A stretch of 64,000 nt of DNA from Chloroflexota bacterium (GTDB lineage Bacteria; Chloroflexota; Dehalococcoidia; GIF9; JBFMDU01), in the NCBI GenBank assembly GCA_040753815.1, contig JBFMDU010000014.1, positions 36,527-100,526 on the forward strand, written 5' to 3'. Position 1 is the first letter of the stretch, and each line of letters opens with the position of its first letter. Below, piece after piece: positions 6,778 through 60,324 of the stretch. The position numbers and the translations under genes are program-made. The notes below the pieces were generated by a model. It searched no databases. It was given only the letters and a program-made list of their open reading frames with translations, and was not told the DNA's origin.

Positions 6778-6798
6778 CCCGGCCTTACCTCACCGTAT

Positions 6799-7428: not shown

Positions 7429-7463
7429 GTCTCCGGCTCCGCCGTTACTTCATGTACCTCGAT

Positions 7464-7479
7464 ATACTAGGTATAGTAT
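7464..7479. promoter_or_regulatory. Inverted repeat ATACTA-GGTA-TAGTAT in the divergent plsY / radical-SAM intergenic region
   Basis: Seen directly. Each arm reads as a -10-like box on its own strand (TATAGT on plus, TAGTAT on minus). The function is unproven. Confidence 0.3.
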
Positions 7480-7569
7480 AGCCTCATGGGCATGTCCCGT
7501 CAATTATTTTCAGGTTGAGAAGCTGGCAAGGTTAAGATAAAATTTCTCATTCATGAGCTATGGAAATCT

Positions 7570-8514
7570 ATGAGTAACCAGTCCCGATTTCAAAGGCCGG
7601 ACATCCTCCGGCCCCCCAGCGAATGGGACAGTTATTATCTCCCGCTTACGCACGGGTGTTCCAACAACACCTGCGCTTTCTGCTCCTTCTACGGATCCAG
7701 GCTTCAGGTGCGGGACATTGCCGAGGTCAAAGCTGAAATCGATGCCCTCGCCCTTTACATGAAGCATGGCATCCATACCCCGGGTATGCCCGGCATCATC
7801 TACGGCATCGCCCGGGAGTGGGATGGCAGAAAGGTATTCCTGCAGGATGGTGACGCCCTGGCCTATCCCTTCCCCAAACTTCTCGAGGCGCTAGACTACC
7901 TCAACGCCAAATTACCTGACATTGAGCGCATCGCCAGCTATGCTACTCCTCAGGACATCCTGCGTCGGACGGCGGCCGAGTTAAAGCAATTAAAAGCCAG
8001 AAAGCTTGGCATACTTTACATGGGCGTCGAGAGCGGCGATGACGAGGTGCTGAAAGCAATCGGCAAGGGCGTCACTCATGACCAGATTGTCCAGGCCGGT
8101 CGGAAGGTCAAGGAGAGCGGCATCGCCCTCTCGGTAACCGTCATCCTGGGGCTGGCCGGTGTTGAAGGGAGCGACCGGCACAGCCGCGAGACTGCCAGAA
8201 TCCTCATCGAGCTTGATCCCGACTACGCCGGAGCCCTGACCCTCATCCTCGTGCCCGGAACTCCTATCTACCGACAGGTGGAGCAGGGCACGTTCCACCT
8301 GATAACACCGCTCCGGTCACTGGAGGAGCTGAGAATCCTTGTTGCCGAGTCCCGTTTCTCCAACTGCTTCTTCAGTTCCATGCACGCATCCAACTACCTC
8401 TCCATCCGCGGGCGTCTCCCCGGGGACAGACAGCGGATGCTGAAACAGCTTGACGAAGTCTGTGCCAGAAAAGACCCGGCCCTGCTCCGCCCTGAGTTCA
8501 TGCGTGCTTTGTAA
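7570..8514 (+). CDS. Radical SAM protein with non-canonical CX4CX2C cluster motif (ELP3-like spacing)
   Basis: The DNA at 7657-7683 reads tgt tcc aac aac acc tgc gct ttc tgc, which translates to C-SNNT-C-AF-C. Downstream LQDGDAL and YMGVESGDDEVL are typical radical SAM core strings. Confidence 0.7.
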   Translation: MSNQSRFQRPDILRPPSEWDSYYLPLTHGCSNNTCAFCSFYGSRLQVRDIAEVKAEIDALALYMKHGIHTPGMPGIIYGIAREWDGRKVFLQDGDALAYPFPKLLEALDYLNAKLPDIERIASYATPQDILRRTAAELKQLKARKLGILYMGVESGDDEVLKAIGKGVTHDQIVQAGRKVKESGIALSVTVILGLAGVEGSDRHSRETARILIELDPDYAGALTLILVPGTPIYRQVEQGTFHLITPLRSLEELRILVAESRFSNCFFSSMHASNYLSIRGRLPGDRQRMLKQLDEVCARKDPALLRPEFMRAL

Positions 8515-8528
8515 CCGCTGCTAAAGCC

Positions 8529-9782
8529 TTATGTAGCAGTTGGTGACACCGATTCCACACGCGGCTTGCCCGCCAGCAACAGCAGTGGCCCCGTGGCAAA
8601 TGTGACCGCGGCAAAGACCAGCCAGATAAGCTGGTAGCTCTTGTTCACGTCAAATACCCAACCCGCCAGCACTGGCGCCGTCAGGCCGCCGACCTGCGTG
8701 ACTGCCAGAATCATACCTTGAATCGAGCCGAAAGCGGCGCGTCCAAAGTACTCGCGCTGGAGCGCCGGACGGCCCACGAATGTGCCTCCAAACGCCGGCC
8801 CGTAGAGTGCCAGAAAGACTACGAACTGCCACAACTGCGTACCGAGAGCAAAAAAGGTAAGCCCTACCCCCTGAAGTGCCATCGCCGCGAACAGCACTCG
8901 CCGGTGGCCGTATCTATCGCCCAGCCAGCCAAATACCAGCCGGCCAGCGATGCTGGTAACCGGAATGAGCATTCCGATTACTGCCCCGAGTTCCGGAGGC
9001 AGGTTAACGCTTATAAAGAACGGCATAGCGTGGAGGGTCACAGCGCTGGTCACGCCCATGTGGACAAGAAATACGACCGATAAGACCCAGAAGGCGCGGG
9101 TCTTGACCGCACGCCTTACTGTGAAATCGTCAGCGGCCGCTGGCTGTCCCTTGGTCACCGTTATGGCCGCTCCAGCCCCGGCCTTTTCGCCGTCAGGTAG
9201 TAACCCGAGTTCCTCCGGCCGGTGGCGCAGGAACACCGCCGCCGGGATAACGATAGCCCATGTTGCTAGACCGAGGACCACCAATGTCGTGCGCCAATCA
9301 TAGGCGCCAATCATCCACACGATAATTGGTAGAAAAATACCGCCAAGACCGTAGCCAATCAGGGTAAGACCTATCGCCCTCCCTGCTTTTTTTCTGAACC
9401 AGTTGGCCACTGCCGTAACAGTTACGCCATGTCCCATGCCGGTAAGCCCTATGGAATAGATAAAGAACCCGAGGTAAAATATCAATAATGTATTGGTGAG
9501 GCTCAGAGTAATGTAGCCCAGCCCGCCGATGATCCCGCCCACCAGTGCTACCCTCCTTGGCCCGAACCGGTCAGCCAGGAAACCGACAAAAGGAGCAATC
9601 AGCCCGATTTCGACGCTCCTGAGCGACCCGGCTATCGAAACTTCAAGGTAGCTCCAGCCGAACTGGTCGACGACCGGCTTGATGAACGCGGTGATGCAAT
9701 AGAAGCCAACGCCGCCCCAGAACGAGATGACGGCGGCGGTTACAACAATCCACCAGCCATAAAAAAACCCAGGCCGCTTCAT
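8529..9782 (-). CDS. MFS transporter
   Basis: About 12 predicted hydrophobic helices, FLADRFGPRR and LGDRYGHRR loop motifs (MFS signature D-R-x-G-R-R), and a central hydrophilic loop. Confidence 0.8.
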   Translation of the reverse strand: MKRPGFFYGWWIVVTAAVISFWGGVGFYCITAFIKPVVDQFGWSYLEVSIAGSLRSVEIGLIAPFVGFLADRFGPRRVALVGGIIGGLGYITLSLTNTLLIFYLGFFIYSIGLTGMGHGVTVTAVANWFRKKAGRAIGLTLIGYGLGGIFLPIIVWMIGAYDWRTTLVVLGLATWAIVIPAAVFLRHRPEELGLLPDGEKAGAGAAITVTKGQPAAADDFTVRRAVKTRAFWVLSVVFLVHMGVTSAVTLHAMPFFISVNLPPELGAVIGMLIPVTSIAGRLVFGWLGDRYGHRRVLFAAMALQGVGLTFFALGTQLWQFVVFLALYGPAFGGTFVGRPALQREYFGRAAFGSIQGMILAVTQVGGLTAPVLAGWVFDVNKSYQLIWLVFAAVTFATGPLLLLAGKPRVESVSPTAT

Positions 9783-9847: not shown

Positions 9848-10795
9848 CTAACCGCCCTGAGATTGTGCCGCACTTTTCGGAATGCGCGACTCACAGGGCA
9901 CCCCTGTCTGGCACATGCCGCAGCCCAGATACCGTCCTACGTAACCTTGGTCACGCCCCAGCCTCTTGAGAATTGCCGGCTGAGTAGTAACTACGAACTC
10001 ACGGCATTTGATTTTATCATGACCGTCTTCAGTTATTGCTCCGGCGGGACACCGCTCAGCGCACTTCCGGCAAGTGCCCTCGCGATAGAACAGGCAATTC
10101 GCGCGGTGGTTCGGATAGGGCCGTGGGGTTGGTGCGATTACCGCTGTAGTAACGACGCTCCCACAGCGCATGGCCACGCCTTTGGGAGTAATCAGGCCAT
10201 CGCTAAGGCTGAAGGTACCCAGTCCGGCGGCGTAGGCGATGTGACGCTGAGACCAGTTTGCCGCCAGTCCGTTAGGCAGGCTCTTGACCGTGTAGCATGG
10301 TGTCATGTCAGGCGCCACCGCCGTATACCCGAGGTTATGCAGACACTCCATCACAAAGGTCGCCAGTTCGTTCATCATCTCCTGTCCCTGCCAGCGTCCA
10401 TTGTTCCACTCCAGGGAGGGTACCTGTGTCTCGCGCCGGTTGCTGAGCTTGATCGCCGTTGTAAAAGGTAAAACCCAGGAAACTACACTGACCGGGGTGT
10501 GGTCCAATACCGTCATGCCGCCTGTTTCAAGGCATGCCTTCATTGCCTCACGAGGCGTCATGTGGAAGTCGCCGACCGCCGTTTTGAACTGCTCGAATAC
10601 AGGGTCATCACCGTCAGCGATGCCGACCATCGGCTCATCAAAGATAGGCCCGCCACCCAGTTTGGTCAAGCAGTTCTTGGGACTGCTTGCAACCAGTCCC
10701 TTGATAGCCCTGTCCAGAGAGGCGGCCAGACCGCCTGGCGAACGGTCGATATCAGTCATATGCAAGATTATGCCTTCTCCATCTTCTCTTCGCAA
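9848..10795 (-). CDS. Cytoplasmic RdhA/QueG-superfamily Fe-S protein (4Fe-4S double-cluster domain)
   Basis: C-terminal CLFYREGTCRKCAERCPAGAI and CGMCQTGVPC cluster motifs. No twin-arginine signal and no adjacent membrane-anchor gene. The start may be M13 (10759). Confidence 0.6.
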   Translation of the reverse strand: MRREDGEGIILHMTDIDRSPGGLAASLDRAIKGLVASSPKNCLTKLGGGPIFDEPMVGIADGDDPVFEQFKTAVGDFHMTPREAMKACLETGGMTVLDHTPVSVVSWVLPFTTAIKLSNRRETQVPSLEWNNGRWQGQEMMNELATFVMECLHNLGYTAVAPDMTPCYTVKSLPNGLAANWSQRHIAYAAGLGTFSLSDGLITPKGVAMRCGSVVTTAVIAPTPRPYPNHRANCLFYREGTCRKCAERCPAGAITEDGHDKIKCREFVVTTQPAILKRLGRDQGYVGRYLGCGMCQTGVPCESRIPKSAAQSQGG

Positions 10796-10945
10796 GGCCA
10801 GACGGTAAAGCTCAAAGAGACACCGCCTCTTCGAAACGAACTTTAAGGGTTGACTTGACCGAAGAGATTAAACTAACCTTATAGAATAAAGCAAAATAAT
10901 TTAGATAGCATTTATGGTAGCCGGGTAGAAAACAGTGAGGAATCC

Positions 10946-12565
10946 ATGAGAGTCCTCCGTCCGATGCCACTGGTGGCCGGTGCTTTGTCATGCGCCGTCG
11001 GCCTGATAGTAATCGTCGGCTGGTTTACCTCCATCCCTATCCTCACCAGCTTTCTGTCGGACGCGGTTTCCATGAAATTCAACGCCGCCCTTTGCTTCGT
11101 TTTTATCGGCGCGGCGCTATTACTCTCATCCCTGCCGGTTCCACGGAGAGCCGCCCCGGGCGTTTCCCTTGCCTTCTGCGCCGTCGCCATCGCTATCAGC
11201 GTCATCACTCTCTTCGAATATGCTTTCGACTGGAGCCCGGGCATCGACCTGCTAATTGTCAGCGAGCCGCCTGGCGCTCAATATACGGCCAGCCCTGGCC
11301 GCATGCCGCCACAGGCTGCGTTCAATTTTATACTCCTCAGTCTTTCGCTGGTCCTCATGAACCACCCGCGGCGGCGCTGGTGGCTGACCTCTCAAATAAT
11401 GGCCTATATCGTATCGGTCTTAGGACTTATTACCCTTGAAGATTATGTCTTTGGAGTCGAGGGTCTACATGGGCTTGGCGTCTATACCCATATTGCTTTA
11501 CCCGGAGCAGTCATTTTCCTCCTGCTTCCGGTTGGCATATTGGCCTGCCACCCACCCCGGGGACTGACCTTACCATTCTCTGGGTCGAGTGCCGGAGGCA
11601 GGATGGCGCTGTATCTCCTGCCAGCAATAGTAGTGGTAATAACTGTCCTTAACGTTGTGATTCATGCTGGCATGGATGCTGGTTTCTTCACCGAGAGTTT
11701 AGGCCATGCTATGTTAGTGGTAAGCTCAATTCTGATCCTGACGCTGGTCATAAGCATCGCCTCGCTCCGTCTCAGCACTGCGGACGAGCGGCGCCGCAGG
11801 GCCGAAAACGAAGTGCTGTCCCTGATGACCCGAAAAGTGAACGAACTGGAACAGCTCGACCAGATGAAGACCAACATGATATCCGTTGTCTCCCACGAGC
11901 TGAGGACGCCGCTGGCCATCATTAAGGGTTACAGCACCATGCTGCTCAAATACAACAAGACTCTTGGCGATGAGGAAAAAGTGGACTGCCTGGAGAAAAT
12001 CGACCAGGCCACCGACCGACAGGCCCGCCTTGTCGACCACCTCATCGACCTGTCACGGCTTGAAGCCGGCCTGCTCCACCTTGACCGGATAATGACCAGT
12101 GTTGCCGGCCTGATCGGAGACGCCGTCACGGAAGCGCGTCTGATATATAAGGACCACACCATCAACTACGCGCCAACGGACGGTGTGCTGGAACTTAATA
12201 TCGACCCCAGGCGCATCCGCCAGGTTATCGACAACCTTATCAACAACGCGGTGAAGTATTCACCGACTGGTACTACCATAGATGTCCGGGTAAGCGTGGA
12301 CGGCCGGGCAGTCCTGGTAAGCATCAGCGACCAGGGCGTCGGCATTCCTCAGGACGCCTTGGAAAGGGTTTTCGACCGTTCCTTCCGTGCCAAAGAACGG
12401 CTCTCATCACACGTGGACGGGCTTGGGCTCGGACTCAATCTCTGCCGGGGACTGGTTAATGCCCACGGTGGGAGAATCTGGGTGGAGAGCGTTATCGGAA
12501 AAGGCAGCACCTTCTATTTTACTCTGCCGATCGAAGGAGTTGACCGCCATGAAAAAAGAAGCTGA
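10946..12565 (+). CDS. Sensor histidine kinase with polytopic N-terminal membrane domain
   Basis: H-box SHELRTPL, N-box NLINNAVKYS, G1 DQGVGI, G2 GLGLGLNL. About 280 aa of hydrophobic N-terminal domain. Confidence 0.85.
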   Translation: MRVLRPMPLVAGALSCAVGLIVIVGWFTSIPILTSFLSDAVSMKFNAALCFVFIGAALLLSSLPVPRRAAPGVSLAFCAVAIAISVITLFEYAFDWSPGIDLLIVSEPPGAQYTASPGRMPPQAAFNFILLSLSLVLMNHPRRRWWLTSQIMAYIVSVLGLITLEDYVFGVEGLHGLGVYTHIALPGAVIFLLLPVGILACHPPRGLTLPFSGSSAGGRMALYLLPAIVVVITVLNVVIHAGMDAGFFTESLGHAMLVVSSILILTLVISIASLRLSTADERRRRAENEVLSLMTRKVNELEQLDQMKTNMISVVSHELRTPLAIIKGYSTMLLKYNKTLGDEEKVDCLEKIDQATDRQARLVDHLIDLSRLEAGLLHLDRIMTSVAGLIGDAVTEARLIYKDHTINYAPTDGVLELNIDPRRIRQVIDNLINNAVKYSPTGTTIDVRVSVDGRAVLVSISDQGVGIPQDALERVFDRSFRAKERLSSHVDGLGLGLNLCRGLVNAHGGRIWVESVIGKGSTFYFTLPIEGVDRHEKRS

Positions 12566-49360: not shown

Positions 49361-50152
49361 TTACATCGGTATTTCCGGCTGAATTACCAACCTGGATATG
49401 CCCTTCTCTTCAAAGCCCTCCGGTAGGGCCGTATTCTTAAAAAAGATAGTATTCCCCTTGCGTATCAACATCACCGGCATTATCTCGCTGGTCAATCCGA
49501 AGGAATACTTACGGCATTCACGTCGGCATGGGAAGATACCAATCTGCTCCTCCATCTCTGGAACATCGCATGAAGCTGTGAGACACATCCGGGTGGTCGT
49601 CACGTAGGCATATGGTATATAGAGTGAGACTTCAAGCCCTTCTAACGGTAAATCAATTCCTTGAAGTATGTTATCCAGTTCGACACGTCTGACCCTGTGT
49701 TCCATAAGGAACTCCTGTACCAAGGGTACTGTCAGGCTGGAATTACTAAAGTATTCAATAGTAGTCTCGGGAAGACGGTCAATGACCATCATCAATCTGG
49801 GCCCACGCTTCATCTTGTTAAGCAACCGTCCCATCACCGGCACCAGATTCGGGAATCGCTGTCTCATCAGCCTGAGCACACCGTAATCGTTGAATACGAC
49901 TTCAGAACCAGGCCTCTGATTAACCACAGCATCCAACAGTGCCTCGACTCGCCTTATGCCCGCTTCGGTAACGTATGGAGTTACCAGAGCGAACCCGGCA
50001 CCATTATCACAGGCGAACTTCAATGCTGTCGCTAATTCATCAGACGTTGGAAGCAACCGCTCACAAAACTCGTTGCCAAAATACAAGCATGAAAAATTCT
50101 CCGCCCAATAATGCAGGTGGTCCGGCCTGGTAATGAATAACGCCTGTTCCAT
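49361..50152 (-). CDS. U32-family-like protein with 4-Cys cluster (partner B)
   Basis: LYFGNEFCERLLP start of a TIM-barrel-like domain and a Cys cluster MCLTASC-x13-CRREC (CX4CX13CX3C). The ATG at 50152 shares one base with the upstream stop (TGATG), implying translational coupling. The track start at 50182 is less likely. Confidence 0.6.
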   Translation of the reverse strand: MEQALFITRPDHLHYWAENFSCLYFGNEFCERLLPTSDELATALKFACDNGAGFALVTPYVTEAGIRRVEALLDAVVNQRPGSEVVFNDYGVLRLMRQRFPNLVPVMGRLLNKMKRGPRLMMVIDRLPETTIEYFSNSSLTVPLVQEFLMEHRVRRVELDNILQGIDLPLEGLEVSLYIPYAYVTTTRMCLTASCDVPEMEEQIGIFPCRRECRKYSFGLTSEIMPVMLIRKGNTIFFKNTALPEGFEEKGISRLVIQPEIPM

Positions 50153-51132
50153 CAGACTATCATCACCTCCGGGTAATAACACATGTAGACCCGGCAGGGA
50201 CGCTTGTACGTCTCCTGGTACCGCTTCCTTGCAGTAGCATAAAACTCCTGTTTTGTTGGCCCTTGAGACAGCAGGTCAAGAAGCGACCTTAAAAAACGTA
50301 TATCGGTTAACTTCCGAATACTCTGATTGCCACGGCCGACTATCTTTACACTTTTTATCCCAATCTGGTTAAAGTCCCATAGAGCACAGGCGCCGCATGG
50401 AAAATCGTCCACGTGGGCCAGTTCCCATATCCGCTGACGCTTAATTGATATGCGTGCCGCTGTGTCTTCGGCGCCATCTTCAACCGCTACCGAAACGTCG
50501 TATGGCAACATGCAAGCGTTGCGGTAAAGCAGGTCCATCGACTTGTCAGCAAGTCCGTGGTGAAAGGTACAAAACCCATCAACATTAGGACAACGAGAGT
50601 TGAAGACGAATGTCTCCAGATCGATTCCTTTCACATTCCCCACGATACTCTGGATTTCATCAATCGTAAGATGCCTGGGAAGAATGATTCTCGATGCACC
50701 CAGGTTCTGATAGAACTTGACAGCTTCGGAATTGAAGGCAGTGCCCCCGGTGCTGATCACTACTTTAGCTCTTGCCCTCATCTGACGGAGGAGTAGAAGA
50801 ATGGCAAGGTCAGCAACGATAAGCGCGTTCACACCTATGCTATCGGCTCTCTCAATGAAATTCTTGATGTATGGATACTGTTTTTCAATGTAGTAGTGCT
50901 CATTAAGTGTTAGAAAGACAGGGATAGTGTGCGAATGGGCAATGCTGACACACTCATCAAGTTGGTCGAACGTAGTGAAATTAGCACCGCCGCCGGGACG
51001 GCGGTTGATGGAGCCTGCGATGTATTGGTTGTGCCATTCCTCGGTTAGTAGGCCACAGTAAAGTTCGTCAGCGCCGGCCTGGATTAGCGGCTCTACCTCT
51101 TCAACTTTGTCGACTGGAGAAAGTAGTTTCAC
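50152..51132 (-). CDS. U32-family protein (peptidase U32 / UbiU-UbiV-RlhA-like fold) (partner A)
   Basis: MKLLSPVDKVEEVEPLIQAGADELYCG matches the U32 N-terminus, with IVADLAILLLLRQ and a Cys pattern RCPNVDGFC (CX6C) plus later C...CGAC. GTG start with an AGGGG RBS. Confidence 0.65.
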   Translation of the reverse strand: MKLLSPVDKVEEVEPLIQAGADELYCGLLTEEWHNQYIAGSINRRPGGGANFTTFDQLDECVSIAHSHTIPVFLTLNEHYYIEKQYPYIKNFIERADSIGVNALIVADLAILLLLRQMRARAKVVISTGGTAFNSEAVKFYQNLGASRIILPRHLTIDEIQSIVGNVKGIDLETFVFNSRCPNVDGFCTFHHGLADKSMDLLYRNACMLPYDVSVAVEDGAEDTAARISIKRQRIWELAHVDDFPCGACALWDFNQIGIKSVKIVGRGNQSIRKLTDIRFLRSLLDLLSQGPTKQEFYATARKRYQETYKRPCRVYMCYYPEVMIV

Positions 51133-51273
51133 TATACCCCTATGCTATGACTACTCAATAAAGAACAAATTTTTACATTAGCTAGTACGATGTAAAGACC
51201 ACAGTTAACGTCAGATATAATTTACTATAAGTTCTCGCCTGTACCCCGGACACCCGAGGCTCAAGCTTTCCAA

Positions 51274-52836
51274 CTACTTTGTCTTGTCGAGTGACTCCAT
51301 ATCGATAATACGGGTAGGATTGGCATGGTTACCAGGGTCCAGGTTTTTTTTAATGCTCAAGAGTAATTTCATACCTACAGGGTGTGCTGGCCAGAAGATT
51401 TTCCCGGGACCGGTTATATTAATGGTACTGATAGCCTGACCTTCTATACCAGAAGCGCTCACTTCGGTCATGCATTTTGCAAGTGTCAGATCGTTTTCGT
51501 CAGTCTTTTCCCTGGGGAAGTCAACTTCCGCCAGGGAAAAATGACCGAGGTCGTAGGGAGCTATCCAGGCCGGATGCGCACTGTCCAAAAATGGCGGCGT
51601 GTACTTGTCCAGTACTTCCCACGATGCTGGTAGGCTCCGTTCACCGTCGTCAACAGAGTCGATCGTCAGATTAACTAACGAGTAACCGCCGCCGATACGC
51701 ATCATCCGGCATCCGTTAGTGTCGCGTATCCAGTTATTAGCAGCGTAGGGGACCCACCGCTGGTAGACTTCATCTGGCACTGGAGTACCGCCAGTCTCCT
51801 TGGCGATTTGCCTCAGCACTTTCTCCTCGTACTTTACCTGTCGTGGCGACGCACAGCCCCAGAGACAAATGGCAACACAGTTCTTGACGTTCTTCAGCCA
51901 GTACTCCGAGACCCACGTGTCCCAATATTCCTCACGCGACTTCGCCCACCACCAGTCGTAATAGCCAGGCGGCCATATATGAACCACTGCACCTATCTCA
52001 CAATGTGAAATTTCATAGATAGCATCAATAGCTTGATGCATGGTCGGGTAGGATAAAAGACACCATTTGAACCTATCAGCAGGTAGTTCGCACTTCTTTT
52101 TTGGGGCAATCCCTTCTGTCGGCAATACATCTGGGCCAGGCCATGGGAACAGCTTGATAGCTAGTTTAGTGACAATCCCTAGAGTGCCGATGCTACCAAC
52201 AACCCCTCTCAATATTGCTCTGGCATCTGGACCCGGCCCCTCGCCCCAGGAGTAATTGTTTCCTGAGAGGGCCAGAGAGCCCGTCCGCAAAATATCGCCG
52301 GTAGGCAGAACCCATTCAACCCCAAGGATGTTTCTGGCGGCAAACCCGCTTCGATATGCTGTACCTTGTTGACCAAAAGCAATATGATTGGCCAAACTGC
52401 AAGATTGCGCGCCGGCTTCCGGGGTTCCATTGACCAATCCGGTCTTCATCGCCTCCACCGATACCTGAGCATGGGTCACATAGGGCTCGATCAGCGCATA
52501 CATATTGCGCTGGTCAATCACGAGCCGGTTCATGCGCTTGGTATCGATAATTACCCAGTATGGTTTGACCGCTGCGGTTATACCAAAGGCAAGGCCCGAC
52601 CCCACTACTGAATACGGGAACCCAAGTCGGTTCGCCAGACGAATAATCTCCTGGACATCACCGGTACTGCATGGCATAGCAATGAACGCAGCACGCCGCC
52701 GTGTAGCGACGCTTGGCGCCTGGGATTCACGGCTATATGACTCGAGCACTAACGGATCATCACAGACATATTCATGCCCCAGAATATCAACCAGACGGTT
52801 ACGAATTAGACTGTGTTTCTCGTCACCGAGTGGCAT
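51274..52836 (-). CDS. FAD-binding oxidoreductase (PCMH-type, GlcD / D-lactate dehydrogenase / VAO family)
   Basis: FAD-binding-4-like N-domain ([28 protein letters not shown]...[45 protein letters not shown]). Confidence 0.75.
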
Positions 52837-52855
52837 CCATCATCTCCCATGGCCA

Positions 52856-54115
52856 CTAGAGCGCATTTTGCACCATTTGCGCTAAATCAAGTACCTGAAG
52901 GTGAGAGCCATGGCTTGCCACCGCATCAATAAAATTCCACTCGCACCAGGGACAAGCCGAGACCAGTACCTCAGCACCGGTTGACTCCGCTTCTTCTACC
53001 CTGTCTGCTGCGGAGAACTTATTGAAGTCCGGATAGGCTTCGTATACACCGCCACCAGCTCCGCAACACCAGGCATACTCCTTGATACGTTCCATTTCAA
53101 CCAGTCGAACACCCGGAATACTCCTGATAATGTTCCGCGGTTCTTCATAGAGTCCAACAATCGGTTCTCCTGGCACGTAGACTGGCAGACGTCGACCGAT
53201 GTGACAGGGGTCATGATAGGTGACTGTAACCGGCATCTTCCTGCTTGGCTTAAGGCGGCCGTCCTTCAGGGCAGCGTCGATGAATTCCACCATGTGTAGG
53301 ACCTCTAGTTTCAACCCGTACTCAGGATACAGCCGTTTGAAAGCATAATATCCGTCGGAACATGCGGTCACCACAGTCTTGACACCGGCGTTCTTCCACG
53401 CCTGGATATTATGCTCGGCAAACTTGGCAAGCTCTCCTTTATAACCCATCTCGTAGACACGGCCGCCACAGCAGGTCTCGTCCTGCCCCATAATACCCAC
53501 ATCCACCCCGGCCCTCTGCATTAACTGGACTGCACTATGCAGTGAAGGCCATAATACTGAATCAAAACTCGCCCGACAACCAGCATGGAAAACCACTTCA
53601 GCCTTCTCTTGTGTCAGGTCCTTTAGCCCAAGGCCCTCAGCCCACCTGCTTCTTTCGGCCTTAGGTTTCATCATTATGTTATCTTCCTTGCGTAGATGGT
53701 TGATGACCGGTATCAAGGCTGGATGAAGCTGGCCATCTCCTACCAGTTTAAGCCGCATCTCCTGGATAACCCGTAGCGGCTCCATGTCCTGCACACGCTT
53801 GCACATGGCATCACAGCCGCCGCAGAAATTGCATCGATAGAAGACGTCAAGGAGCATAGGAGAATCGTCGTACTTAAGCCGCCCATCAATTAAGGCTAGC
53901 GATACGTCCATTCGCCCCTGGCAGGAGAAGGCATCGTATAAGTAGTACTGGCTTGAAGGACAAATCTTAGCAAAGCGCCAGCTTTTGACCTCCCAGGAAT
54001 CCACCCATTTGCAGTTCGAGCATCTGGAGCAATTCCAGGCATTCTTGCGAAGGTCCCAGTAGTACTTTAGGTGCCAGTCATCTTTAGGCAGGCACTTACC
54101 GTTAACCATTACCAT
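52856..54115 (-). CDS. HdrD/GlcF-like Fe-S protein with two CCG domains
   Basis: Two ferredoxin-like Cys groups (CSRCSNCKW..CP; CNFCGGCDAMC) and two CCG motifs (ETCCGG, AWCCGAGGG). Confidence 0.8.
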   Translation of the reverse strand: MVMVNGKCLPKDDWHLKYYWDLRKNAWNCSRCSNCKWVDSWEVKSWRFAKICPSSQYYLYDAFSCQGRMDVSLALIDGRLKYDDSPMLLDVFYRCNFCGGCDAMCKRVQDMEPLRVIQEMRLKLVGDGQLHPALIPVINHLRKEDNIMMKPKAERSRWAEGLGLKDLTQEKAEVVFHAGCRASFDSVLWPSLHSAVQLMQRAGVDVGIMGQDETCCGGRVYEMGYKGELAKFAEHNIQAWKNAGVKTVVTACSDGYYAFKRLYPEYGLKLEVLHMVEFIDAALKDGRLKPSRKMPVTVTYHDPCHIGRRLPVYVPGEPIVGLYEEPRNIIRSIPGVRLVEMERIKEYAWCCGAGGGVYEAYPDFNKFSAADRVEEAESTGAEVLVSACPWCEWNFIDAVASHGSHLQVLDLAQMVQNAL

Positions 54116-54184
54116 GGGAGTCTTTCCTTCGCCCTATCATAACCACATCAATTACCCCCGGTCACGGCTAAAGCTTGTTTGGCT

Positions 54185-54451
54185 CTATACTTCCTTTGGT
54201 GTCTTATCAGGGTGCAGTTTTTTAAACTTTGCTAGAAGTTGTTCTTTGGTTTCTTTCCTCTTCGGGTCCGGCTGGGGTGCCTCGACCGGGCAAATCTCAG
54301 CGCATTTAGATGTTTTGTAGAAGCCGACGCACTCTGTACATTTCTCCGGGTCTATCTTATAAATGGTGTCGCCTTCACTTATCGCCTGGTTAGGGCACTC
54401 AAGCTCGCACGACCCACACGCCGCACATTCCTCAGTAATTCTGTAGGCCAT
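54185..54451 (-). CDS. 2x[4Fe-4S] ferredoxin
   Basis: CAACGSCELECP and CTEC...CAEICP motifs. 88 aa. Confidence 0.8.
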   Translation of the reverse strand: MAYRITEECAACGSCELECPNQAISEGDTIYKIDPEKCTECVGFYKTSKCAEICPVEAPQPDPKRKETKEQLLAKFKKLHPDKTPKEV

Positions 54452-54512: not shown

Positions 54513-55544
54513 TTATTGTGGCTTGATGACGTACTCAAACCAATGCGGGCGGCTTGCATCCCCGTTTACAACTTTAAGCTGGTAAAGCCCTGGCATGTCG
54601 ACATCATTGTTGTCCGGCCTGGCTATCAGCGTCATCTCCACACGTTTCCCGCCATCGAGCCGATTATACCCCTTGACGTCTACTCTACCCCACAAATACG
54701 ACCATTCGGCGCGGTCCTTATTGTATCTGGTCACCTGGGATATATCTACATCCGGTCCTGTTTTATGTTCTGAAGCTCGCGGTGGCAGATGAATACCTAT
54801 TGGTGCATCTGAAACCACCATCACAGAGAAAGCTTCGCCTTCTGAAAGACTGAAGACCGGGCTAAAGTAGAGGTTGTCGATAACCGTAGCGGCGTACCGG
54901 GAAACAAGTACTGGCATCACATTGGATAAGTCAGTCTGTGGCGCCGCTTGGAGTTCAATCTTCCCTGAAAGCGGCAGTTTTGCAACCGAGCCTTCGACCG
55001 GTAGAGCGTCATAGAAAAAGGTGCCAACCGCTACCCGCGCATCTTTAAACGACTTGGTATCGTTGATGAAACAGAAGTACCGTAGCTCCTGGTTGTACCG
55101 TCCTTTACTCACGGCTGTCAAACCACCCAGTCCAAACTCAATTATTCCCTCCGGGTCACGCACCATGTAGCCAATGGTTGTCGGCCCCGAGACCAGCTTC
55201 CAGCTTAGCATGTATTTCTCGCCAGGCTTGATACGTACCGGTACAATAACCGTCTTGCCTGCGGGAATAGTGAGTAACGCTACACGTTCAAGTTCGGCCT
55301 TTGGGATATCAAGGACTGATGAATTCTCTGGGAGCCATGCTGGCGGAGTTGGCAATGGCTCGTTCACTCTACTGCAACCCGACACTGCTATCCAGGCAAC
55401 CAGCGTAATGGCGACGACACCCAAAAATAAGTTTAGCGAACGGAACTCAGGCTTCATTACGGTGCGATGCTCCAATTCCATGCGGGCAGTTCCGTAAAGT
55501 ATACCAGCTAATTGTTTTCGCAAGAAGGATTGGCGAGCGTTCAT
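54513..55544 (-). CDS. Hypothetical lipoprotein
   Basis: Signal peptide LFLGVVAITLVAWIAVSGC with a lipobox, followed by a beta-rich body. The true start is probably M30 (ATG 55457). Confidence 0.55.
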   Translation of the reverse strand: MNARQSFLRKQLAGILYGTARMELEHRTVMKPEFRSLNLFLGVVAITLVAWIAVSGCSRVNEPLPTPPAWLPENSSVLDIPKAELERVALLTIPAGKTVIVPVRIKPGEKYMLSWKLVSGPTTIGYMVRDPEGIIEFGLGGLTAVSKGRYNQELRYFCFINDTKSFKDARVAVGTFFYDALPVEGSVAKLPLSGKIELQAAPQTDLSNVMPVLVSRYAATVIDNLYFSPVFSLSEGEAFSVMVVSDAPIGIHLPPRASEHKTGPDVDISQVTRYNKDRAEWSYLWGRVDVKGYNRLDGGKRVEMTLIARPDNNDVDMPGLYQLKVVNGDASRPHWFEYVIKPQ

Positions 55545-55593: not shown

Positions 55594-56772
55594 CTAGATC
55601 AGGCCGGTTTGTTTCCCCACCGACCTAAAAACATCAATTACGTAGTCAAGCTGCTCATCAGTATGAGTTGCCATAAAGCTGGTGCGCAGGAGTTCACGTC
55701 CTTCCGGAACAGCCGGGGAAAGAGCGACATTAACAAACACACCTTTGTCAAATAGCAGTTTCCACGTCATGATGGCCCGGTAGACATCGCCGACGACGAT
55801 TGGGACTATCGGAGTAGTTGATTTTCCGATGTTGAAGCCGAGCCTCTGAAACTCCTGGCGCATCCGAGCAGCGATGTTGTTGACCCTGGCAACCCTATCC
55901 GGCTCTTCTCGCATCAAACGCAAAGCGGCCAGGGCTGCTGCGGCGCTGGCCGGCGGGATACTTGCACTGAATATTAGAGCCCGGGCATGGTGCTTGACAT
56001 AATGCATGACAACCTCATCGCCGGCAACAAAGCCGCCAATAGAGGCTAGCGACTTGCTGAATGTACCCATTATCAAGTCAACTTCACTGGTGAGCCCGAA
56101 CTGAGCCGCCGTACCTTTGCCGCTACCCAACACCCCCAGCGCATGAGCATCATCAACCATCAGCCTTCCTCCATGCTTGTGGCACAGTCTTACTATATCT
56201 GGTAGAAGCGCAATGTCACCCTCCATGCTGAATACCCCGTCGACAACGACCAGCTTACCTTTGTCAGCTGGTGTCCCAGCCAGCACTTGCTCTAGGTCAG
56301 CCATATCGTTATGCTGGAACCGTCTTGTCTCCCCCCAGCTCAGCCTGGCGCCATCAACAATGCTGGCGTGATCGTCTTTATCCAGAATAACGATGTCGCC
56401 GCGTCCGACCAGCGCACTGATAGTACCCAAGTTAGTCTGCATGCCGGTCGAGAAGACCAGAGCCGCCGGCTTCCCTACCCAGTCAGCCAGTTCTTTTTCA
56501 AGTTGCTCATGTAATTCCAGAGTGCCGTTAAGGAAGCGTGAGCCAGTACAACTGGTGCCGAACCTATCGATTGCCTCATGAGCTGCCTGCACTACTCTCG
56601 GGTGTTTGGTAAGACCCAGGTAGTTGTTTGAGCCACACATGATCAATCGGTGTCCCTTATACTCTGCTATAGCGCCGTCGTTTTCTGTTAAGGGGATAAA
56701 AAATGGGTAGAAGCCGGCATCCATAGCCTCCCTGGCAGCGGTGAACTGAGGGCACTTCTCAAATATGTCCAT
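55594..56772 (-). CDS. spt: Alpha-oxoamine synthase, serine palmitoyltransferase-like
   Basis: PLP-lysine motif GTFSKSLASIGGF, with GSRFLNGT, VFSTGMQTNLG, DKDDHASIVDG and a C-terminal VNVALSPAVPEGRELLR. From memory the string-by-string match is closest to Sphingomonas SPT. It is followed 3 nt later by a KDSR-like SDR. BioF, KBL and CapB remain alternatives. Confidence 0.65.
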   Translation of the reverse strand: MDIFEKCPQFTAAREAMDAGFYPFFIPLTENDGAIAEYKGHRLIMCGSNNYLGLTKHPRVVQAAHEAIDRFGTSCTGSRFLNGTLELHEQLEKELADWVGKPAALVFSTGMQTNLGTISALVGRGDIVILDKDDHASIVDGARLSWGETRRFQHNDMADLEQVLAGTPADKGKLVVVDGVFSMEGDIALLPDIVRLCHKHGGRLMVDDAHALGVLGSGKGTAAQFGLTSEVDLIMGTFSKSLASIGGFVAGDEVVMHYVKHHARALIFSASIPPASAAAALAALRLMREEPDRVARVNNIAARMRQEFQRLGFNIGKSTTPIVPIVVGDVYRAIMTWKLLFDKGVFVNVALSPAVPEGRELLRTSFMATHTDEQLDYVIDVFRSVGKQTGLI

Positions 56773-56775
56773 AGC

Positions 56776-57609
56776 CTACCTCTCTTGTTCGTTTTCCGCT
56801 TTCTTGTGAGCTCTCGCCACCAAGCGGTCCAGCAAGCTGTATGTTGCAGGCCCCGCCAGACTTGTCATCCAAAAGAGTAGCTTGCCTTCCATCCCAGGAA
56901 TGATGAGATATTGCCTTCGGGCAATGCCCCTCATAATTGCCTCAGCCACCTTTGCAGGGGTCATCACCTTTGTGCTATCGAGATGCTTGACAACCGCTGG
57001 CTTCAACTGGCTCTCACGTTGTAATTGTGGAGTATCAGTGTTCTGTGGGAAAACAATTGATACGTTGATCCCCGTAGGCTTTAACTCGGCTCTTAGAGAA
57101 TCCGAAAAACCCCGTACGGCGAATTTTGATGCGCAGTATGCTGAATAGCCGTAGCCGCCAATAAATCCGTAGACCGACGATACGTTTACAATGTGTCCTG
57201 AGCGGCGCTCCAGCATCGATGGCAAGCACGCAGAGACCATATTCACAGTACCAAAGTAGTTAATCTCCATAATCCGGCGAAACACTTCGGCACCCGTTGT
57301 CTGGAAAAATCCGACCTCAACATCACCAGCACTGTTAATCAAGATATCGGGTGCCTTACACCTTTTTATCATCTCGGTAACAGCGGCCTCGCACTGGTGT
57401 AGGTCGGTCACATCCGCAACGATCGTTCCGCAATACTGCTCCGGGCTTCGGCGTGCTGTTTCGACCTGTGCCAGCGCCGATTCTAACCGTTCCCGGTCAC
57501 GTGCCAGCAGGCAAACGTGGGCGCCCCGTCGTGAGAACAGCCTGGCTGTCTCCAGCCCGATGCCGCTTGAGCCGCCGGTAATAAGCGCCGCCTTACCGCA
57601 GAATTCCAT
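56776..57609 (-). CDS. SDR, 3-ketodihydrosphingosine reductase (KDSR)-like
   Basis: ITGGSSGIG cofactor loop, INYFGTV, catalytic YSAYCASKFAVRG, then LKPTGINVSIVFPQNTDTPQ. From memory this parallels the human KDSR string [20 protein letters not shown]. Confidence 0.6.
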   Translation of the reverse strand: MEFCGKAALITGGSSGIGLETARLFSRRGAHVCLLARDRERLESALAQVETARRSPEQYCGTIVADVTDLHQCEAAVTEMIKRCKAPDILINSAGDVEVGFFQTTGAEVFRRIMEINYFGTVNMVSACLPSMLERRSGHIVNVSSVYGFIGGYGYSAYCASKFAVRGFSDSLRAELKPTGINVSIVFPQNTDTPQLQRESQLKPAVVKHLDSTKVMTPAKVAEAIMRGIARRQYLIIPGMEGKLLFWMTSLAGPATYSLLDRLVARAHKKAENEQER

Positions 57610-57611
57610 AT

Positions 57612-58778
57612 CTATGCCAGCGCCATGTCATAGATGCGCCAGGTCTTGGTGTGCCGCATTCCGATAGTCTCCAGTGCTTTAATAGTCCGCCAGTTATCTT
57701 CAAGATGCATTGACCCTTCAATAAATTTGTAATTGCGGCTGGCCAGATACTCAAGAACCTCGGCTCCCAAAAGCATGTCTGCCCCCAACCCGCGGAATCG
57801 CTCCCTAACACCAAAGAAGAACCAGCGCAGGCGTCCTATCCGCTGCCGACCAACCAGCAGTCTTATTATACGTATGGCATCCGTATCGCCATACCACTGC
57901 CAGATTGGTCTTAGACACCAGTTCGGGTCTGGAAGAATACCCAGCATTGCCGCGGCCTCTCCCTTCACGAAGGCCAGCCGCGCCAGACCAGGGTCTCCAA
58001 AAACACGCAGGTAACTGGCTAGCCCCTCCGCCTCGTTGGGCGAGACCGGTAAGAAACCCCAGTTCTGTGCCCAGGCATCATTATAGATTTCCATCATCAG
58101 TCGAACGTCAGCATTCAGGCTTTGCTGAGTGACACAACGTGTTTTGAATCTGGCGCGCTGTCTTATTTTCGCGGCTAACTGCCGCACCCGGGCCAACATG
58201 CCAGGAGAGAGGTCCATAGCGTGAGCCAGATAGTCCTTGGCCTTAACGAATCCGTAGCGTTCCAGAAACCCCTGGTAGTATGGGAAGTTGTAGACGGTAT
58301 CAAAACAGTTTGGGTAATTGAAACCCTCTACAAGCACCCCCTGTCTCTCGTGTGTGGCGCATGAGTACTCACCCGGCCCTCTTATTACTGTCATGCCACG
58401 TTTTTTAATCCAGTCATATGCGTGATCAAGTAACACTCGTGCGACCTCGTAGTCGTTCACTACGTCAAAGAAACCGAAAAACCCAAAACGGTCTTTGTGG
58501 TATTCATTGAACCGATGGTTAATCGCCGCGCTGGTTCTCCCAACGGGCCGGTCGTCTCGCCAAGCAAGGAAATGCGTGACCTCAGCCTCGCGGTGATATG
58601 GATGACGCGGTGTCAGCAGACCGGGCATCTTCAATAACCGATTACCTAGCAATTCCGCTGTGAGCGGGGGTGTCCAATAAGGATTACCATGATAAAGTTG
58701 CCACGGGAAACGTACGAACCACCGCAACCTTTGGTGTCCTAGAGGTAGCTCTTCTACTCGAATAGAGTTGGACGGCAT
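57612..58778 (-). CDS. GNAT-fold N-acyltransferase-like protein (388 aa)
   Basis: GNAT motif-A-like VRERFRGLGADMLL near the C-terminus. The N-region NPYWTPPL...FLAWRDDRPVGRTSAAINHRFNEYH...FGFFGFFD is typical of a widespread uncharacterised acyltransferase family. It ends 2 nt before the SDR gene. Confidence 0.5.
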   Translation of the reverse strand: MPSNSIRVEELPLGHQRLRWFVRFPWQLYHGNPYWTPPLTAELLGNRLLKMPGLLTPRHPYHREAEVTHFLAWRDDRPVGRTSAAINHRFNEYHKDRFGFFGFFDVVNDYEVARVLLDHAYDWIKKRGMTVIRGPGEYSCATHERQGVLVEGFNYPNCFDTVYNFPYYQGFLERYGFVKAKDYLAHAMDLSPGMLARVRQLAAKIRQRARFKTRCVTQQSLNADVRLMMEIYNDAWAQNWGFLPVSPNEAEGLASYLRVFGDPGLARLAFVKGEAAAMLGILPDPNWCLRPIWQWYGDTDAIRIIRLLVGRQRIGRLRWFFFGVRERFRGLGADMLLGAEVLEYLASRNYKFIEGSMHLEDNWRTIKALETIGMRHTKTWRIYDMALA

Positions 58779-58863
58779 GGTTAATTTGTCTCTTTACCGC
58801 AAGTAAGGGGGATAAAGTGTCCCCATAATACCACAGATACAACCGGTCTCGTCTGCCAGCCCG

Positions 58864-58872
58864 TGCTATACT
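58864..58872 (+). promoter_or_regulatory. Extended -10 box TGCTATACT, 10 nt upstream of the GT2 ATG (possible leaderless mRNA)
   Basis: Seen directly. There is no SD sequence between the box and ATG 58883. Confidence 0.4.
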
Positions 58873-58882
58873 TTAGATAGCC

Positions 58883-59707
58883 ATGGCCTCCTCAGCTCTA
58901 CGTTTATCACCTCCCTTCATTACAGTAGTTGTTCCGGCTCTTAACGAAGAGCTTGCACTGGGGCATTGCCTTGAATCATTGATCGCTCAGGAATGTGCCT
59001 TTACCTACGAGATAATCGTTGTCGACAATGGTAGTGTCGACTGCACTGCCGAGGTGGCACACCGTTACGGCGCCAGAGTAGTATACGAAAAGCGCCGGGG
59101 GGTTGGCTGGGCCAGAGCAAGCGGTTTTGCCAACGCAAGAGGTACAATTATCGCAAGCACCGATGCGGATACAGTTGTACCTCGAGACTGGCTTGCCCGG
59201 TTTGCACAGATATTCCAAAAACACTTGGAGGTAGTCGGGGTTGGAGGCCGGTTTATCTACGTAGACGGACCGGTCGGAGTCCGCTTGCTAGGGCGCTTGG
59301 CCAACTATATGACACCACTGATCGTCCGCATGGCCCCTTGGTTCTGGAGTTTTTCTGGTTTCAATTTTGCCGTTCGTCGTGAAGCCTACCTTGCTTCAGG
59401 CGGTTTCCGTAATGACCTGATGTATGGCGAAGATTGGGACTTGGGGAAAAGATTGTGCCGGCTGGGACGCGTAGTAGTCGACAGTGGGTCATGGGTAAAA
59501 ACATCCGGGAAGGCAAGTGAGCGGGACACTCTCTGCATACGTCGAGTCATCAACTACTTTAGCTTGGTTTTTTGGGGACACACGTATCTGCGTCCTATAA
59601 TGCGAAAATCCGGTTTATTTGGTGAAGATGACGCCGATACTCGCAACCATGCAGCCATAAACAGACCGAGTAACACCCGTAACAAAGGCAAAGCCAAACT
59701 CCTGTAA
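58883..59707 (+). CDS. Glycosyltransferase family 2
   Basis: ITVVVPALNEE, IVVDNGSVDCT, STDADT (DxD). It is divergent from the spt-like operon. Confidence 0.75.
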   Translation: MASSALRLSPPFITVVVPALNEELALGHCLESLIAQECAFTYEIIVVDNGSVDCTAEVAHRYGARVVYEKRRGVGWARASGFANARGTIIASTDADTVVPRDWLARFAQIFQKHLEVVGVGGRFIYVDGPVGVRLLGRLANYMTPLIVRMAPWFWSFSGFNFAVRREAYLASGGFRNDLMYGEDWDLGKRLCRLGRVVVDSGSWVKTSGKASERDTLCIRRVINYFSLVFWGHTYLRPIMRKSGLFGEDDADTRNHAAINRPSNTRNKGKAKLL

Positions 59708-59775: not shown

Positions 59776-59844
59776 TATATGGGATTTTTATACTAACCTG
59801 ACATAGCATCCTAATTTCAGAAAATGATCCAGGGAGGTAGAGGT

Positions 59845-60324
59845 ATGTTCTGGTCTAAAAAGGTCGTCATCATGTTCGCTAGTCTCTCATTAATACTAAG
59901 CATTTTACTTCTAGCGGCGTGCGCAGCGCCAGCGGCGGCTCCGGCGTCAGCTCCAACCCCAGCCCCGAAACCCACACCAGCGACAGCTCCCGCTCCGACT
60001 TCAACCACAGCCGCTACCGGTGAACTTAAGTTTGAGTTTGTCTCCGTTACACCTAAGGTTAAGAAGGGTGGCGAAATCGTTGTCATCGGTAAGACCAGCC
60101 CGGGTGCTGAGTGTACCATTGTTATGACCTTCGCCAACGGGCAGGTATCCAAGCTCGTTTTCCCAGAGCCCATGGATAAACAGGTGGCTGATGCTGATGG
60201 CAAGGTGGAGTGGAGGAGTGTTGTTCCGCGAGTGATCATCGGCACGACCAAGCTCGATGTCACTGCCGTAAAGGACGGGAAGAAGGCAACTGCGTCCACG
60301 ACCTACGAGATTATTGAGAGTTAG
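59845..60324 (+). CDS. Small lipoprotein: signal peptide, Ala/Pro linker, beta-rich domain homologous to the C-terminus of the 38621 TAXI protein
   Basis: MFWSKKVVIMFASLSLILSILLLAAC lipobox. The domain alignment shares FVSVT, KT-PGA-C, VADADG-V-W and T-YEI. GGGAGG RBS before ATG 59845; the track start is 59824. Confidence 0.7.
   Translation: MFWSKKVVIMFASLSLILSILLLAACAAPAAAPASAPTPAPKPTPATAPAPTSTTAATGELKFEFVSVTPKVKKGGEIVVIGKTSPGAECTIVMTFANGQVSKLVFPEPMDKQVADADGKVEWRSVVPRVIIGTTKLDVTAVKDGKKATASTTYEIIES

Follow-up and report, generated by a model that had tools for sequence, protein, structure and literature searches.

Anoxic waters and sediments are currently regarded as rich in sphingolipids of bacteria, which are believed to be widespread there, and Chloroflexota have been proposed as major producers on the basis of genes alone that resemble Spt (serine palmitoyltransferase, SPT). 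Many of their lineages have no recognisable CerR (ceramide reductase) or bCerS (bacterial ceramide synthase) near Spt. Which enzymes could then carry out the missing steps? The question is raised here by a locus on contig JBFMDU010000014.1 of a Chloroflexota bacterium, within a stretch of 64,000 nucleotides that was analysed as a whole and is called the window below. The locus holds genes for an N-acyltransferase-like protein of the GNAT fold, a short-chain dehydrogenase/reductase (SDR) and an α-oxoamine synthase (AOS), next to a gene for a family 2 glycosyltransferase (GT2). The layout given in a first-pass annotation of this DNA, three packed minus-strand genes with a divergent GT2 gene, matches the list of open reading frames (ORFs), the gaps being 2 and 3 nt and the GT2 gene lying 104 bp off. 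In our reading this is a hybrid module, in which Spt and a protein of the bCerS family, as in Caulobacter and E. coli, are joined by a reductase of the 3-ketodihydrosphingosine reductase (KDSR) type that replaces the extended-SDR CerR. We consider it likely that the module makes an N-acyl long-chain-base (ceramide-type) membrane lipid, and to judge from the enzyme families the product would most likely be dihydroceramide.

The synthase appears serine-palmitoyltransferase-like from its family scores and its position in trees. It matches Aminotran_1_2 in Pfam (1e-55). Among the NCBIfam models, SPT-CFB scored 504 bits, SPT-BetaP 410 and SPT-AlphaP 333, while the scores of the non-SPT models were 383 for bioF, 366 for the BioF/Kbl-related TIGR01825, 350 for KBL, 262 for ALAS and 209 bits for the CqsA-type model. 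The same ranking was found in the PDB, where the SPT of Sphingobacterium multivorum scored 394 bits and other SPTs 288–304, compared with 261 for the best KBL/BioF and 232 for a cysteate-C-fatty acyltransferase. A neighbour-joining (NJ) tree in which BioF and Kbl of E. coli served as the non-Spt references placed the AOS within the Spt clade and both references outside it in 97 of 100 bootstraps; its clade-mates include the Spt of the E. coli yghO locus, to which it is 40% identical, and the Spt of a Roseomonas sphingolipid cluster. Pairwise identity is 38–40% to proteobacterial Spt versus 35% to E. coli BioF and 33% to Kbl. The catalytic residues are present, namely His135 (DHASI), Asp207/208-His210 (DDAH) and the pyridoxal phosphate (PLP) lysine Lys240 (TFSKS), and no second AOS was found in the window. 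The earlier suggestion that the synthase is nearer to bacterial SPT than to BioF is thus upheld, and an assignment as BioF/KBL was ruled out by the model ranking, the PDB scores and the tree.

The reductase is, on its sequence relationships, a classical SDR of the KDSR subfamily. It matches adh_short in Pfam (9e-54), with TGGSSGIG at 11–18 and NSAG at 92–95, and the triad Ser145/Tyr158/Lys162 is invariant across 19 homologues. The strings ITGGSSGIG, SKFAVRG and VFPQNTDTPQ, from which a resemblance to eukaryotic 3-ketodihydrosphingosine reductase had originally been proposed, are all found in it. A single-sequence search of the PDB gave a generic SDR first (107 bits) and the fungal TSC10 (8jat) second (98 bits). 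With a profile of 19 Spt-adjacent SDRs, TSC10 became the best single-domain match by 155 to 152 bits. As the PDB alone does not discriminate for KDSR, vertebrate KDSR sequences were used for the test; they were retrieved with a human-KDSR bait, which matched at 99% identity a database entry that bears the name 3-ketodihydrosphingosine reductase. In phmmer the window SDR scored 136–146 bits against five vertebrate KDSRs, aligned over residues 5–256 with two one-residue indels, compared with at most 107 bits against any PDB SDR. The profile gave KDSR 232–256 bits versus 155 for the best single-domain PDB match. In the reverse direction, a primate KDSR scored 140–169 bits against the bacterial SDRs and 104.7 against TSC10, its best PDB match. 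The Spt-adjacent SDRs and KDSR formed one clade in the tree, with generic SDRs apart. The proposed resemblance therefore withstood comparison, and the protein is not equidistant from generic SDRs. A FabG-like identity was ruled out by a score of only 54 bits to the FabG-like gene of the same window versus 142 to KDSR. CerR orthology was likewise rejected, the protein being a 277-aa adh_short member whereas CerR is an extended SDR of ~320 aa of the Epimerase family (PF01370).

The terminal hydrophobic membrane helices of eukaryotic KDSR were not found in the window SDR. No 19-residue segment reaches 1.6 on the Kyte-Doolittle scale, the maximum being 1.05, and no transmembrane segment is assigned. 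Arg37, which follows the second β-strand, is invariant among the 19 homologues and hints at a preference for NADP(H); the enzyme is named here as a predicted NADPH-dependent 3-keto reductase. IMG names many of the homologues 3-dehydrosphinganine reductase, and the database entry for a 100%-identical protein is titled 'MAG: SDR family oxidoreductase [Chloroflexota bacterium]'. Uncharacterised bacterial SDRs, of S. meliloti and Kitasatospora, are closer yet (171–175 bits), and the Kitasatospora relative is an orphan gene.

The S. meliloti protein is the closest relative outside the Spt-linked set among the plasmid-collection records. It is 42% identical to the window SDR and is encoded directly after an AOS gene (CP090106.1, 1–5792) whose product is a 471-aa PLP enzyme, 39% identical to the window AOS. 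The gene order is a giant ORF resembling a polyketide synthase (PKS) and named 'SDR family', then AOS, SDR and capsule biosynthesis genes. The set resembles the Pseudomonas SgaABC type of lipid module (PKS, AOS and KDSR homologue), in what we take to be the rkp-1 capsule-lipid region.

The GNAT protein was harder to place. Only weak, sub-threshold GNAT matches were obtained in Pfam (4.9e-4), no NCBIfam model matched, and a PDB sequence search returned nothing; searches with canonical Spt-adjacent GNATs revealed that NCBIfam holds no bCerS model. Since library searches were uninformative, the family was set through synteny, tblastn and predicted structure. The AlphaFold (AF2) model is a tandem GNAT (pLDDT 84.5, pTM 0.84). 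Foldseek retrieved tandem-GNAT structures at E 5e-13, the best structural matches being the clavulanate tandem-GNAT protein, a glucosamine N-acetyltransferase, MshD, VipF, FemX and the C-terminal domain of MprF. The GNAT fold that had been assigned from the sequence is thereby corroborated, and no transmembrane segment was predicted. By BLASTP the protein aligns end to end with E. coli YghO (residues 6–384, 26% identity, E 6e-40), its nearest named relative, and with a Roseomonas protein (30% identity, E 5e-38) that carries the misnomer dATP pyrophosphohydrolase. Both matches are full-length and were found by tblastn against plasmid records.

Both loci mirror the Caulobacter sphingolipid region. 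In Roseomonas, acyl carrier protein (ACP) and AOS genes are followed further on by LptF, LptG, desaturase, the GNAT match and an NTP transferase, so that the match occupies the position equivalent to CC_1154. In E. coli the locus consists of LptF-LptG, then AOS-ACP-epimerase-acyl-AMP ligase, then YghO. The gene yghO (ECD_02850) was equated with CC_1154 in the entry 'aca: CC_1154, yghO ECD_02850' (PMC9386255), and it is through YghO, per that source, that our link from the window protein to Caulobacter CC_1154 runs. Caulobacter CC_1154 (CCNA_01212) is a ceramide synthase, and the 388-aa protein is predicted from its relatives to be a (dihydro)ceramide synthase as well. Homologues in the protein collection number 888 at E ≤0.001; the best 120 of these are mostly ~55% identical, and those with an organism name come from Chloroflexota.

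The E. coli locus was found on a plasmid-labelled record (NZ_MG591698.1, 2343–10122), where a complete Caulobacter-type sphingolipid cluster adjoins glcC and comprises LptF/LptG paralogues, AOS, ACP, epimerase, fatty acyl-AMP ligase and YghO. The sphingolipid cluster of yghO in E. coli had already been noted (PMC9386255). Only some E. coli strains have such a cluster; BL21 is one of them, and K-12 is not known to possess an intact yghO/spt cluster.

Conservation of the neighbourhood was surveyed in 83 loci, 80 from a scan for AOS with one genome per species and three metagenome contigs of close relatives. Adjacencies were counted from tblastn, as the ORF caller missed the AOS gene at 23 loci, apparently for the most part GC-rich ones, in which longer overlapping ORFs had taken its place. 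The best related locus, in a metagenome-assembled genome (MAG) labelled Dehalococcoidia, has an AOS 85% identical to that of the window, and the same four-gene layout was found in relatives at 73–87% identity. A KDSR-like SDR lies directly upstream of Spt on the same strand, within 328 nt, in 22 loci (four close relatives, 16 other Chloroflexota and two Spirochaetales), and in one further locus the SDR is spread over two frames. In 44 loci the gene directly downstream of Spt encodes a bCerS-like GNAT, with homologues 27–36% identical to the window GNAT, and the phyla and groups include Nitrospirota, Gemmatimonadota, Thermodesulfobacteriota, Planctomycetota, Verrucomicrobiota, Myxococcota, Rhodothermus and Ignavibacteriales. 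These Spt-GNAT loci often encode a 320-aa Epimerase-family protein as well, which is taken to be CerR-type from its homology to the epimerase of the E. coli cluster.

The three genes under study come together in three arrangements. The order GNAT-SDR-AOS is shared by the window and its relatives L004–L007; SDR-AOS convergent with GNAT was found in L012, L090 and L099/L100 (a 242-kb contig); and SDR-AOS-GNAT was found in a Spirochaetales MAG (L048). The contexts of L001 and L003 had at first seemed to speak against linkage of GNAT and Spt, until wider sampling gave these co-localised arrangements. The recurrence in independent lineages means that the gene arrangement is more than chance. Both types of pathway occur among Chloroflexota, since one MAG of the phylum (L027) shows the canonical order Spt-bCerS-CerR. 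In the window itself no CerR, dedicated ACP or acyl-ACP synthetase was found, and when the 64 kb were searched by tblastn, the E. coli epimerase and three proteins of the CerR type gave only a weak Rossmann-fold match. The three genes are closely spaced and may be co-transcribed. At the GNAT-SDR junction 2 nt separate the TAG stop from the ATG (GCA-TAG-at-ATG), a gap that suggests translational coupling, and the 3-nt SDR-AOS junction reads GAGAGG-TAG-gct-ATG, in which GAGAGG is Shine-Dalgarno-like.

Two of the surveyed loci have a further feature upstream of the SDR. In L018, genes for an FtsX-type permease, an ABC ATPase and an HlyD-like membrane-fusion protein (5639–8880) stand immediately before the SDR-Spt pair, and a homologue of the HlyD-like gene stands immediately before the SDR in L008. 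In these two loci the upstream genes could be a lipid exporter. The SDR of L017 (9169–9991) and the AOS genes of L022 and L031 (~10001–11177), all in MAGs labelled 'MFD...', are split over two frames, probably by assembly frameshift errors rather than as pseudogenes.

From these assignments the following route may be drawn. The Spt-like enzyme would condense L-serine, the most likely amino acid, with acyl-CoA or acyl-ACP to give 3-ketodihydrosphingosine; the KDSR-type SDR would reduce the 3-keto group with NADPH; and the tandem-GNAT enzyme of the bCerS family would N-acylate the amine to yield dihydroceramide. No signal peptide or membrane span was predicted in any of the three proteins, which would place the whole pathway at the cytoplasmic face of the membrane. 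The eukaryotic order, reduction before acylation, is plausible here because the KDSR-type enzyme has no signal peptide and because the KDSR-linked GNATs are divergent from the CerR-linked bCerS. In a tentative extension of this route, which we regard as doubtful rather than probable, Chloroflexota and some Spirochaetota would have a fully cytoplasmic ceramide pathway in the order Spt, KDSR, N-acylation; the KDSR-linked GNATs would have diverged by acylating sphinganine instead of 3-keto-sphinganine; and the Spt-KDSR pair would be a prokaryotic counterpart of the first two eukaryotic steps and possibly related to their source.

Several points count against a ceramide-type module. The proposal is a prediction from genes. 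The window has no ACP or acyl-ACP synthetase gene for the pathway, SDRs of the KDSR-like kind are found next to non-Spt AOS/PKS systems and as solitary genes too, and promoter and terminator scans did not rise above the shuffled background (9 consensus promoter sites in the region versus 5.4 ± 2.2) and so leave the transcription unit undefined. Other points concern the acyltransferase. In an NJ tree of the GNAT family the window protein groups with its Chloroflexota relatives in a clade of their own, which is sister to canonical bCerS and lies outside it; they are 26–36% identical to canonical members, which share 33–45% among themselves. What had been suggested of the 388-aa protein is thus confirmed for the relationship to bCerS, which the end-to-end match to YghO supports, and has to be revised for the degree, as it belongs to a divergent sister clade and is not a close orthologue. 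Both GNAT lineages that occur with a KDSR-type reductase diverge in this way from the CerR-linked bCerS. Moreover, four of the seven window-type clade members with examined context lie far from an Spt gene (L001, L003, L089, L092), so the clade might have another substrate, and most surveyed Chloroflexota SDR-Spt loci have no GNAT within 10 kb. From such facts one could argue that the SDR-Spt pair alone is functional and makes a free or modified long-chain amino alcohol, either a base resembling sphinganine or, like the PKS/AOS/KDSR-homologue systems, an anchor lipid, while the GNAT acylates an unrelated amine and came to be adjacent by lineage-specific rearrangement; AOS and KDSR-like SDR do occur without bCerS in S. 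meliloti and in SgaBC of P. fluorescens. We find this fairly unlikely. The GNAT accompanies SDR-AOS in three independent orders, two in Chloroflexota and one in the Spirochaetales MAG, its homologues are the standard downstream neighbours of Spt over many phyla, and the 2-nt gap suggests coupled translation. Separation is also no anomaly, since unlinked bcerS and spt are normal in proven ceramide producers (Bacteroidota) and the two genes lie 8 genes apart in Caulobacter.

The identity of the amino acid is the other point at which the ceramide reading may be doubted. The AOS falls under the curated cut-off of every NCBIfam SPT equivalog (504 of 640 bits for CFB, 410 of 500 for BetaP, 333 of 670 for AlphaP), models that were built for phyla other than Chloroflexota, and it is likewise below the curated cut-offs of bioF and KBL. 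Neither the choice among serine, alanine, glycine and cysteate nor the acyl donor can be read from the sequence, and substrate choice in the AOS family hinges on few residues. The enzyme might use alanine or glycine (1-deoxy-ceramides) or cysteate (capnine-type sulfonolipids), with reduction and N-acylation following. The cysteate-C-fatty acyltransferase is a clear homologue by its 232 bits, and 1-deoxy-ceramides are abundant in the anoxic Black Sea (Ding 2024, PMC11334938). We hold such a non-serine lipid to be unlikely, as SPT scores 130–160 bits above cysteate acyltransferase and KBL, the AOS shares a clade with Spt from the E. coli and Roseomonas sphingolipid clusters, and in the scan of neighbouring genes no cysteate synthase was noticed. 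It is highly improbable that we are dealing with housekeeping enzymes, a BioF/KBL-type synthase, a FabG-like reductase and an acetyltransferase, that are adjacent by chance. The bioF and KBL scores are still good, and the identities to E. coli BioF and Kbl are only slightly below those to proteobacterial Spt, but tree and model ranking both favour Spt, the SDR is far closer to KDSR than to the FabG-like protein of the window, synteny with bCerS and CerR homologues extends over many phyla, and no other biotin or threonine-degradation genes are adjacent.

The features of the locus are collected in the table.

Table. Genes and spacer of the putative ceramide-type lipid locus (window positions)
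Feature	Position	Strand	Description
AOS gene, third of operon	55594-56772	-	392 aa, PLP-dependent α-oxoamine synthase, Spt type
SDR gene, second of operon	56776-57609	-	277 aa, classical SDR, KDSR subfamily
GNAT gene, first of operon	57612-58778	-	388 aa, tandem-GNAT N-acyltransferase, bCerS/YghO family, divergent Chloroflexota-specific clade
GNAT/GT2 divergent intergenic spacer	58779-58882		104 bp, presumed home of both promoters
GT2 gene, divergent	58883-59707	+	274 aa, Glycos_transf_2

The divergent gene encodes a GT2 protein by its Pfam match (1e-27) and by the motifs DNGS at 48, DAD at 94–96 and EDWD at 183. Its NCBIfam matches are all far under the cut-off, the PDB matches are generic GT2 enzymes, and no transmembrane segment was predicted. 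A TATACT lies 11 nt 5′ of the ATG, from which a leaderless start is possible. Only close relatives, namely L004 (where the locus end truncates it), L005, L006 and L007, have the gene beside the cluster. From this adjacency we guess, with low confidence, that the GT2 acts as a ceramide head-group transferase. The correlation of glycosyl-ceramides with Chloroflexota in the Black Sea and the GT4 genes beside Spt elsewhere lend the guess weak support. A GT4-type glycosyltransferase (371–401 aa), a family different from the window GT2, adjoins the Spt gene in L024 (2923–4038), L059, L061 and L062, loci that come from outside the Chloroflexota or from Anaerolineales. The pattern suggests that genes for glycosyl head-group enzymes recur next to Spt.

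Window-type GNATs that lie away from Spt are 52–56% identical to the window protein. The copy in L089 (4001–5173) has LPG_synthase_TM, UbiA and inositol-1-phosphate synthase genes as neighbours, a lipid-flavoured context.

Some observations were made on the flanks of the locus. Downstream of the AOS gene, across a gap of 49 nt, lies a 343-aa ORF without family match (54513–55544, minus strand); its single hydrophobic segment is N-terminal and ends ...AVSGC, which is lipoprotein-like, and the ORF may be co-transcribed. Only L006 has a copy of it, 73% identical, after its AOS gene. Further downstream (50152–54451, minus strand) the window encodes a ferredoxin, a protein with a CCG domain, one of the FAD_binding_4 family and a Peptidase_U32. 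In L004/L007 (3777–10794) the ferredoxin and Peptidase_U32 genes are kept, while four paralogous FAD-dependent genes (FAD_binding_3 / geranylgeranyl-reductase-like) replace the CCG-domain and FAD_binding_4 genes, which looks like local gene replacement among close relatives. On the other side (59817–60324), ORFs of 160 and 166 aa overlap antisense on the two strands, and probably no more than one of them is real. The one on the plus strand, for which no Pfam match was found, combines a hydrophobic N-terminus with an Ala/Pro/Thr-rich linker.

A good part of this chemistry has precedents in the literature. Clusters of spt, bcerS and cerR, Spt-like genes in Chloroflexota, BT_0972 of Bacteroides and a Pseudomonas cluster of AOS with a KDSR homologue have already been published, and the KDSR-type reductases otherwise known are those of eukaryotes, Bacteroides BT_0972 and Pseudomonas SgaC. 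In our literature search no description was found of the combination Spt, KDSR and bCerS, of the Spt-KDSR operon as the prevailing arrangement in Chloroflexota, or of the divergent GNAT clade. The locus thus offers a candidate for the replacement of CerR, and it bears on the dispute over whether bacteria reduce before or after N-acylation.

The Caulobacter pathway is reportedly also treated by Olea-Ozuna 2021 and Stankeviciute 2022. In Caulobacter, acylation comes first and is followed by reduction by the periplasmic CerR, an NDUFA9-like extended-SDR ceramide reductase (E. coli ECD_02852 / CC_1164). The window host belongs to the Chloroflexota, a phylum usually described as single-membraned. 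The genes of the Caulobacter/E. coli ceramide pathway are spt, acpR, cerR, aasR and bcerS (CC_1162–1165, CC_1154) (PMC9386255). What the window has in common with them is the Spt-type AOS, the tandem GNAT homologous to YghO/CC_1154, the soluble or peripheral nature of the enzymes and the clustering of the genes. It differs in having no CerR extended SDR, dedicated ACP or acyl-ACP synthetase, in its classical SDR of the KDSR subfamily as reductase, and in a GNAT from a divergent sister clade. With the eukaryotic pathway (SPT, KDSR/FVT1/TSC10 and a Lag1-type ceramide synthase) it shares homologous Spt and KDSR steps. With a score of 142 bits the window SDR is nearer to vertebrate KDSR than the fungal TSC10 with its 105, which bears on the origin of the eukaryotic pathway, and the KDSR motif PPDTDTPxxxxExxxKPxET is common to the two pathways. 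The window proteins differ from the eukaryotic ones in having no membrane anchors, the N-acyltransferase is a GNAT instead of a TLC/Lag1 membrane protein, and the Spt is presumably of the soluble homodimeric bacterial type.

Three bacterial studies come closer still. BT_0972 of Bacteroides thetaiotaomicron is a classical SDR that reduces 3-ketodihydrosphingosine, which implies a eukaryote-like order with reduction first (Lee et al. 2022, PMC9278070). Compared by description, BT_0972 is unclustered with SPT and has 16–30% identity to eukaryotic KDSR, whereas the window SDR is part of an Spt operon. In P. fluorescens MYb115 the genes SgaA (PKS), SgaB (AOS) and SgaC (KDSR homologue) were described (Nat Commun 2025, PMC12134224), and like the S. 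meliloti locus they resemble the window in that an AOS is clustered with a KDSR-homologous SDR in a bacterium. In those systems an iterative PKS supplies very long acyl chains and there is no bCerS, while the reverse holds for the window. Spt-like genes were reported in 218 Chloroflexota MAGs from the Black Sea, where lipidomics correlated ceramides and glycosyl-ceramides with Chloroflexota and the lipid correlations were linked with Anaerolineae (Ding et al. 2024, PMC11334938). Sphingolipid synthesis in the phylum, which the first-pass annotation had called unexpected, was therefore already predicted, and our work agrees with theirs in the phylum and in the prediction from Spt-like genes. Only Caulobacter-type bCerS/CerR homologues were sought by those authors, who raised non-homologous replacements as a possibility (PMC11334938). 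In the parts of the paper available, a KDSR-type reductase upstream of Spt and a divergent GNAT clade are not mentioned (PMC11334938). Compared with that study, the locus gives Chloroflexota candidates for the missing steps, namely a KDSR-type reductase in the Spt operon and a divergent clade of bCerS.

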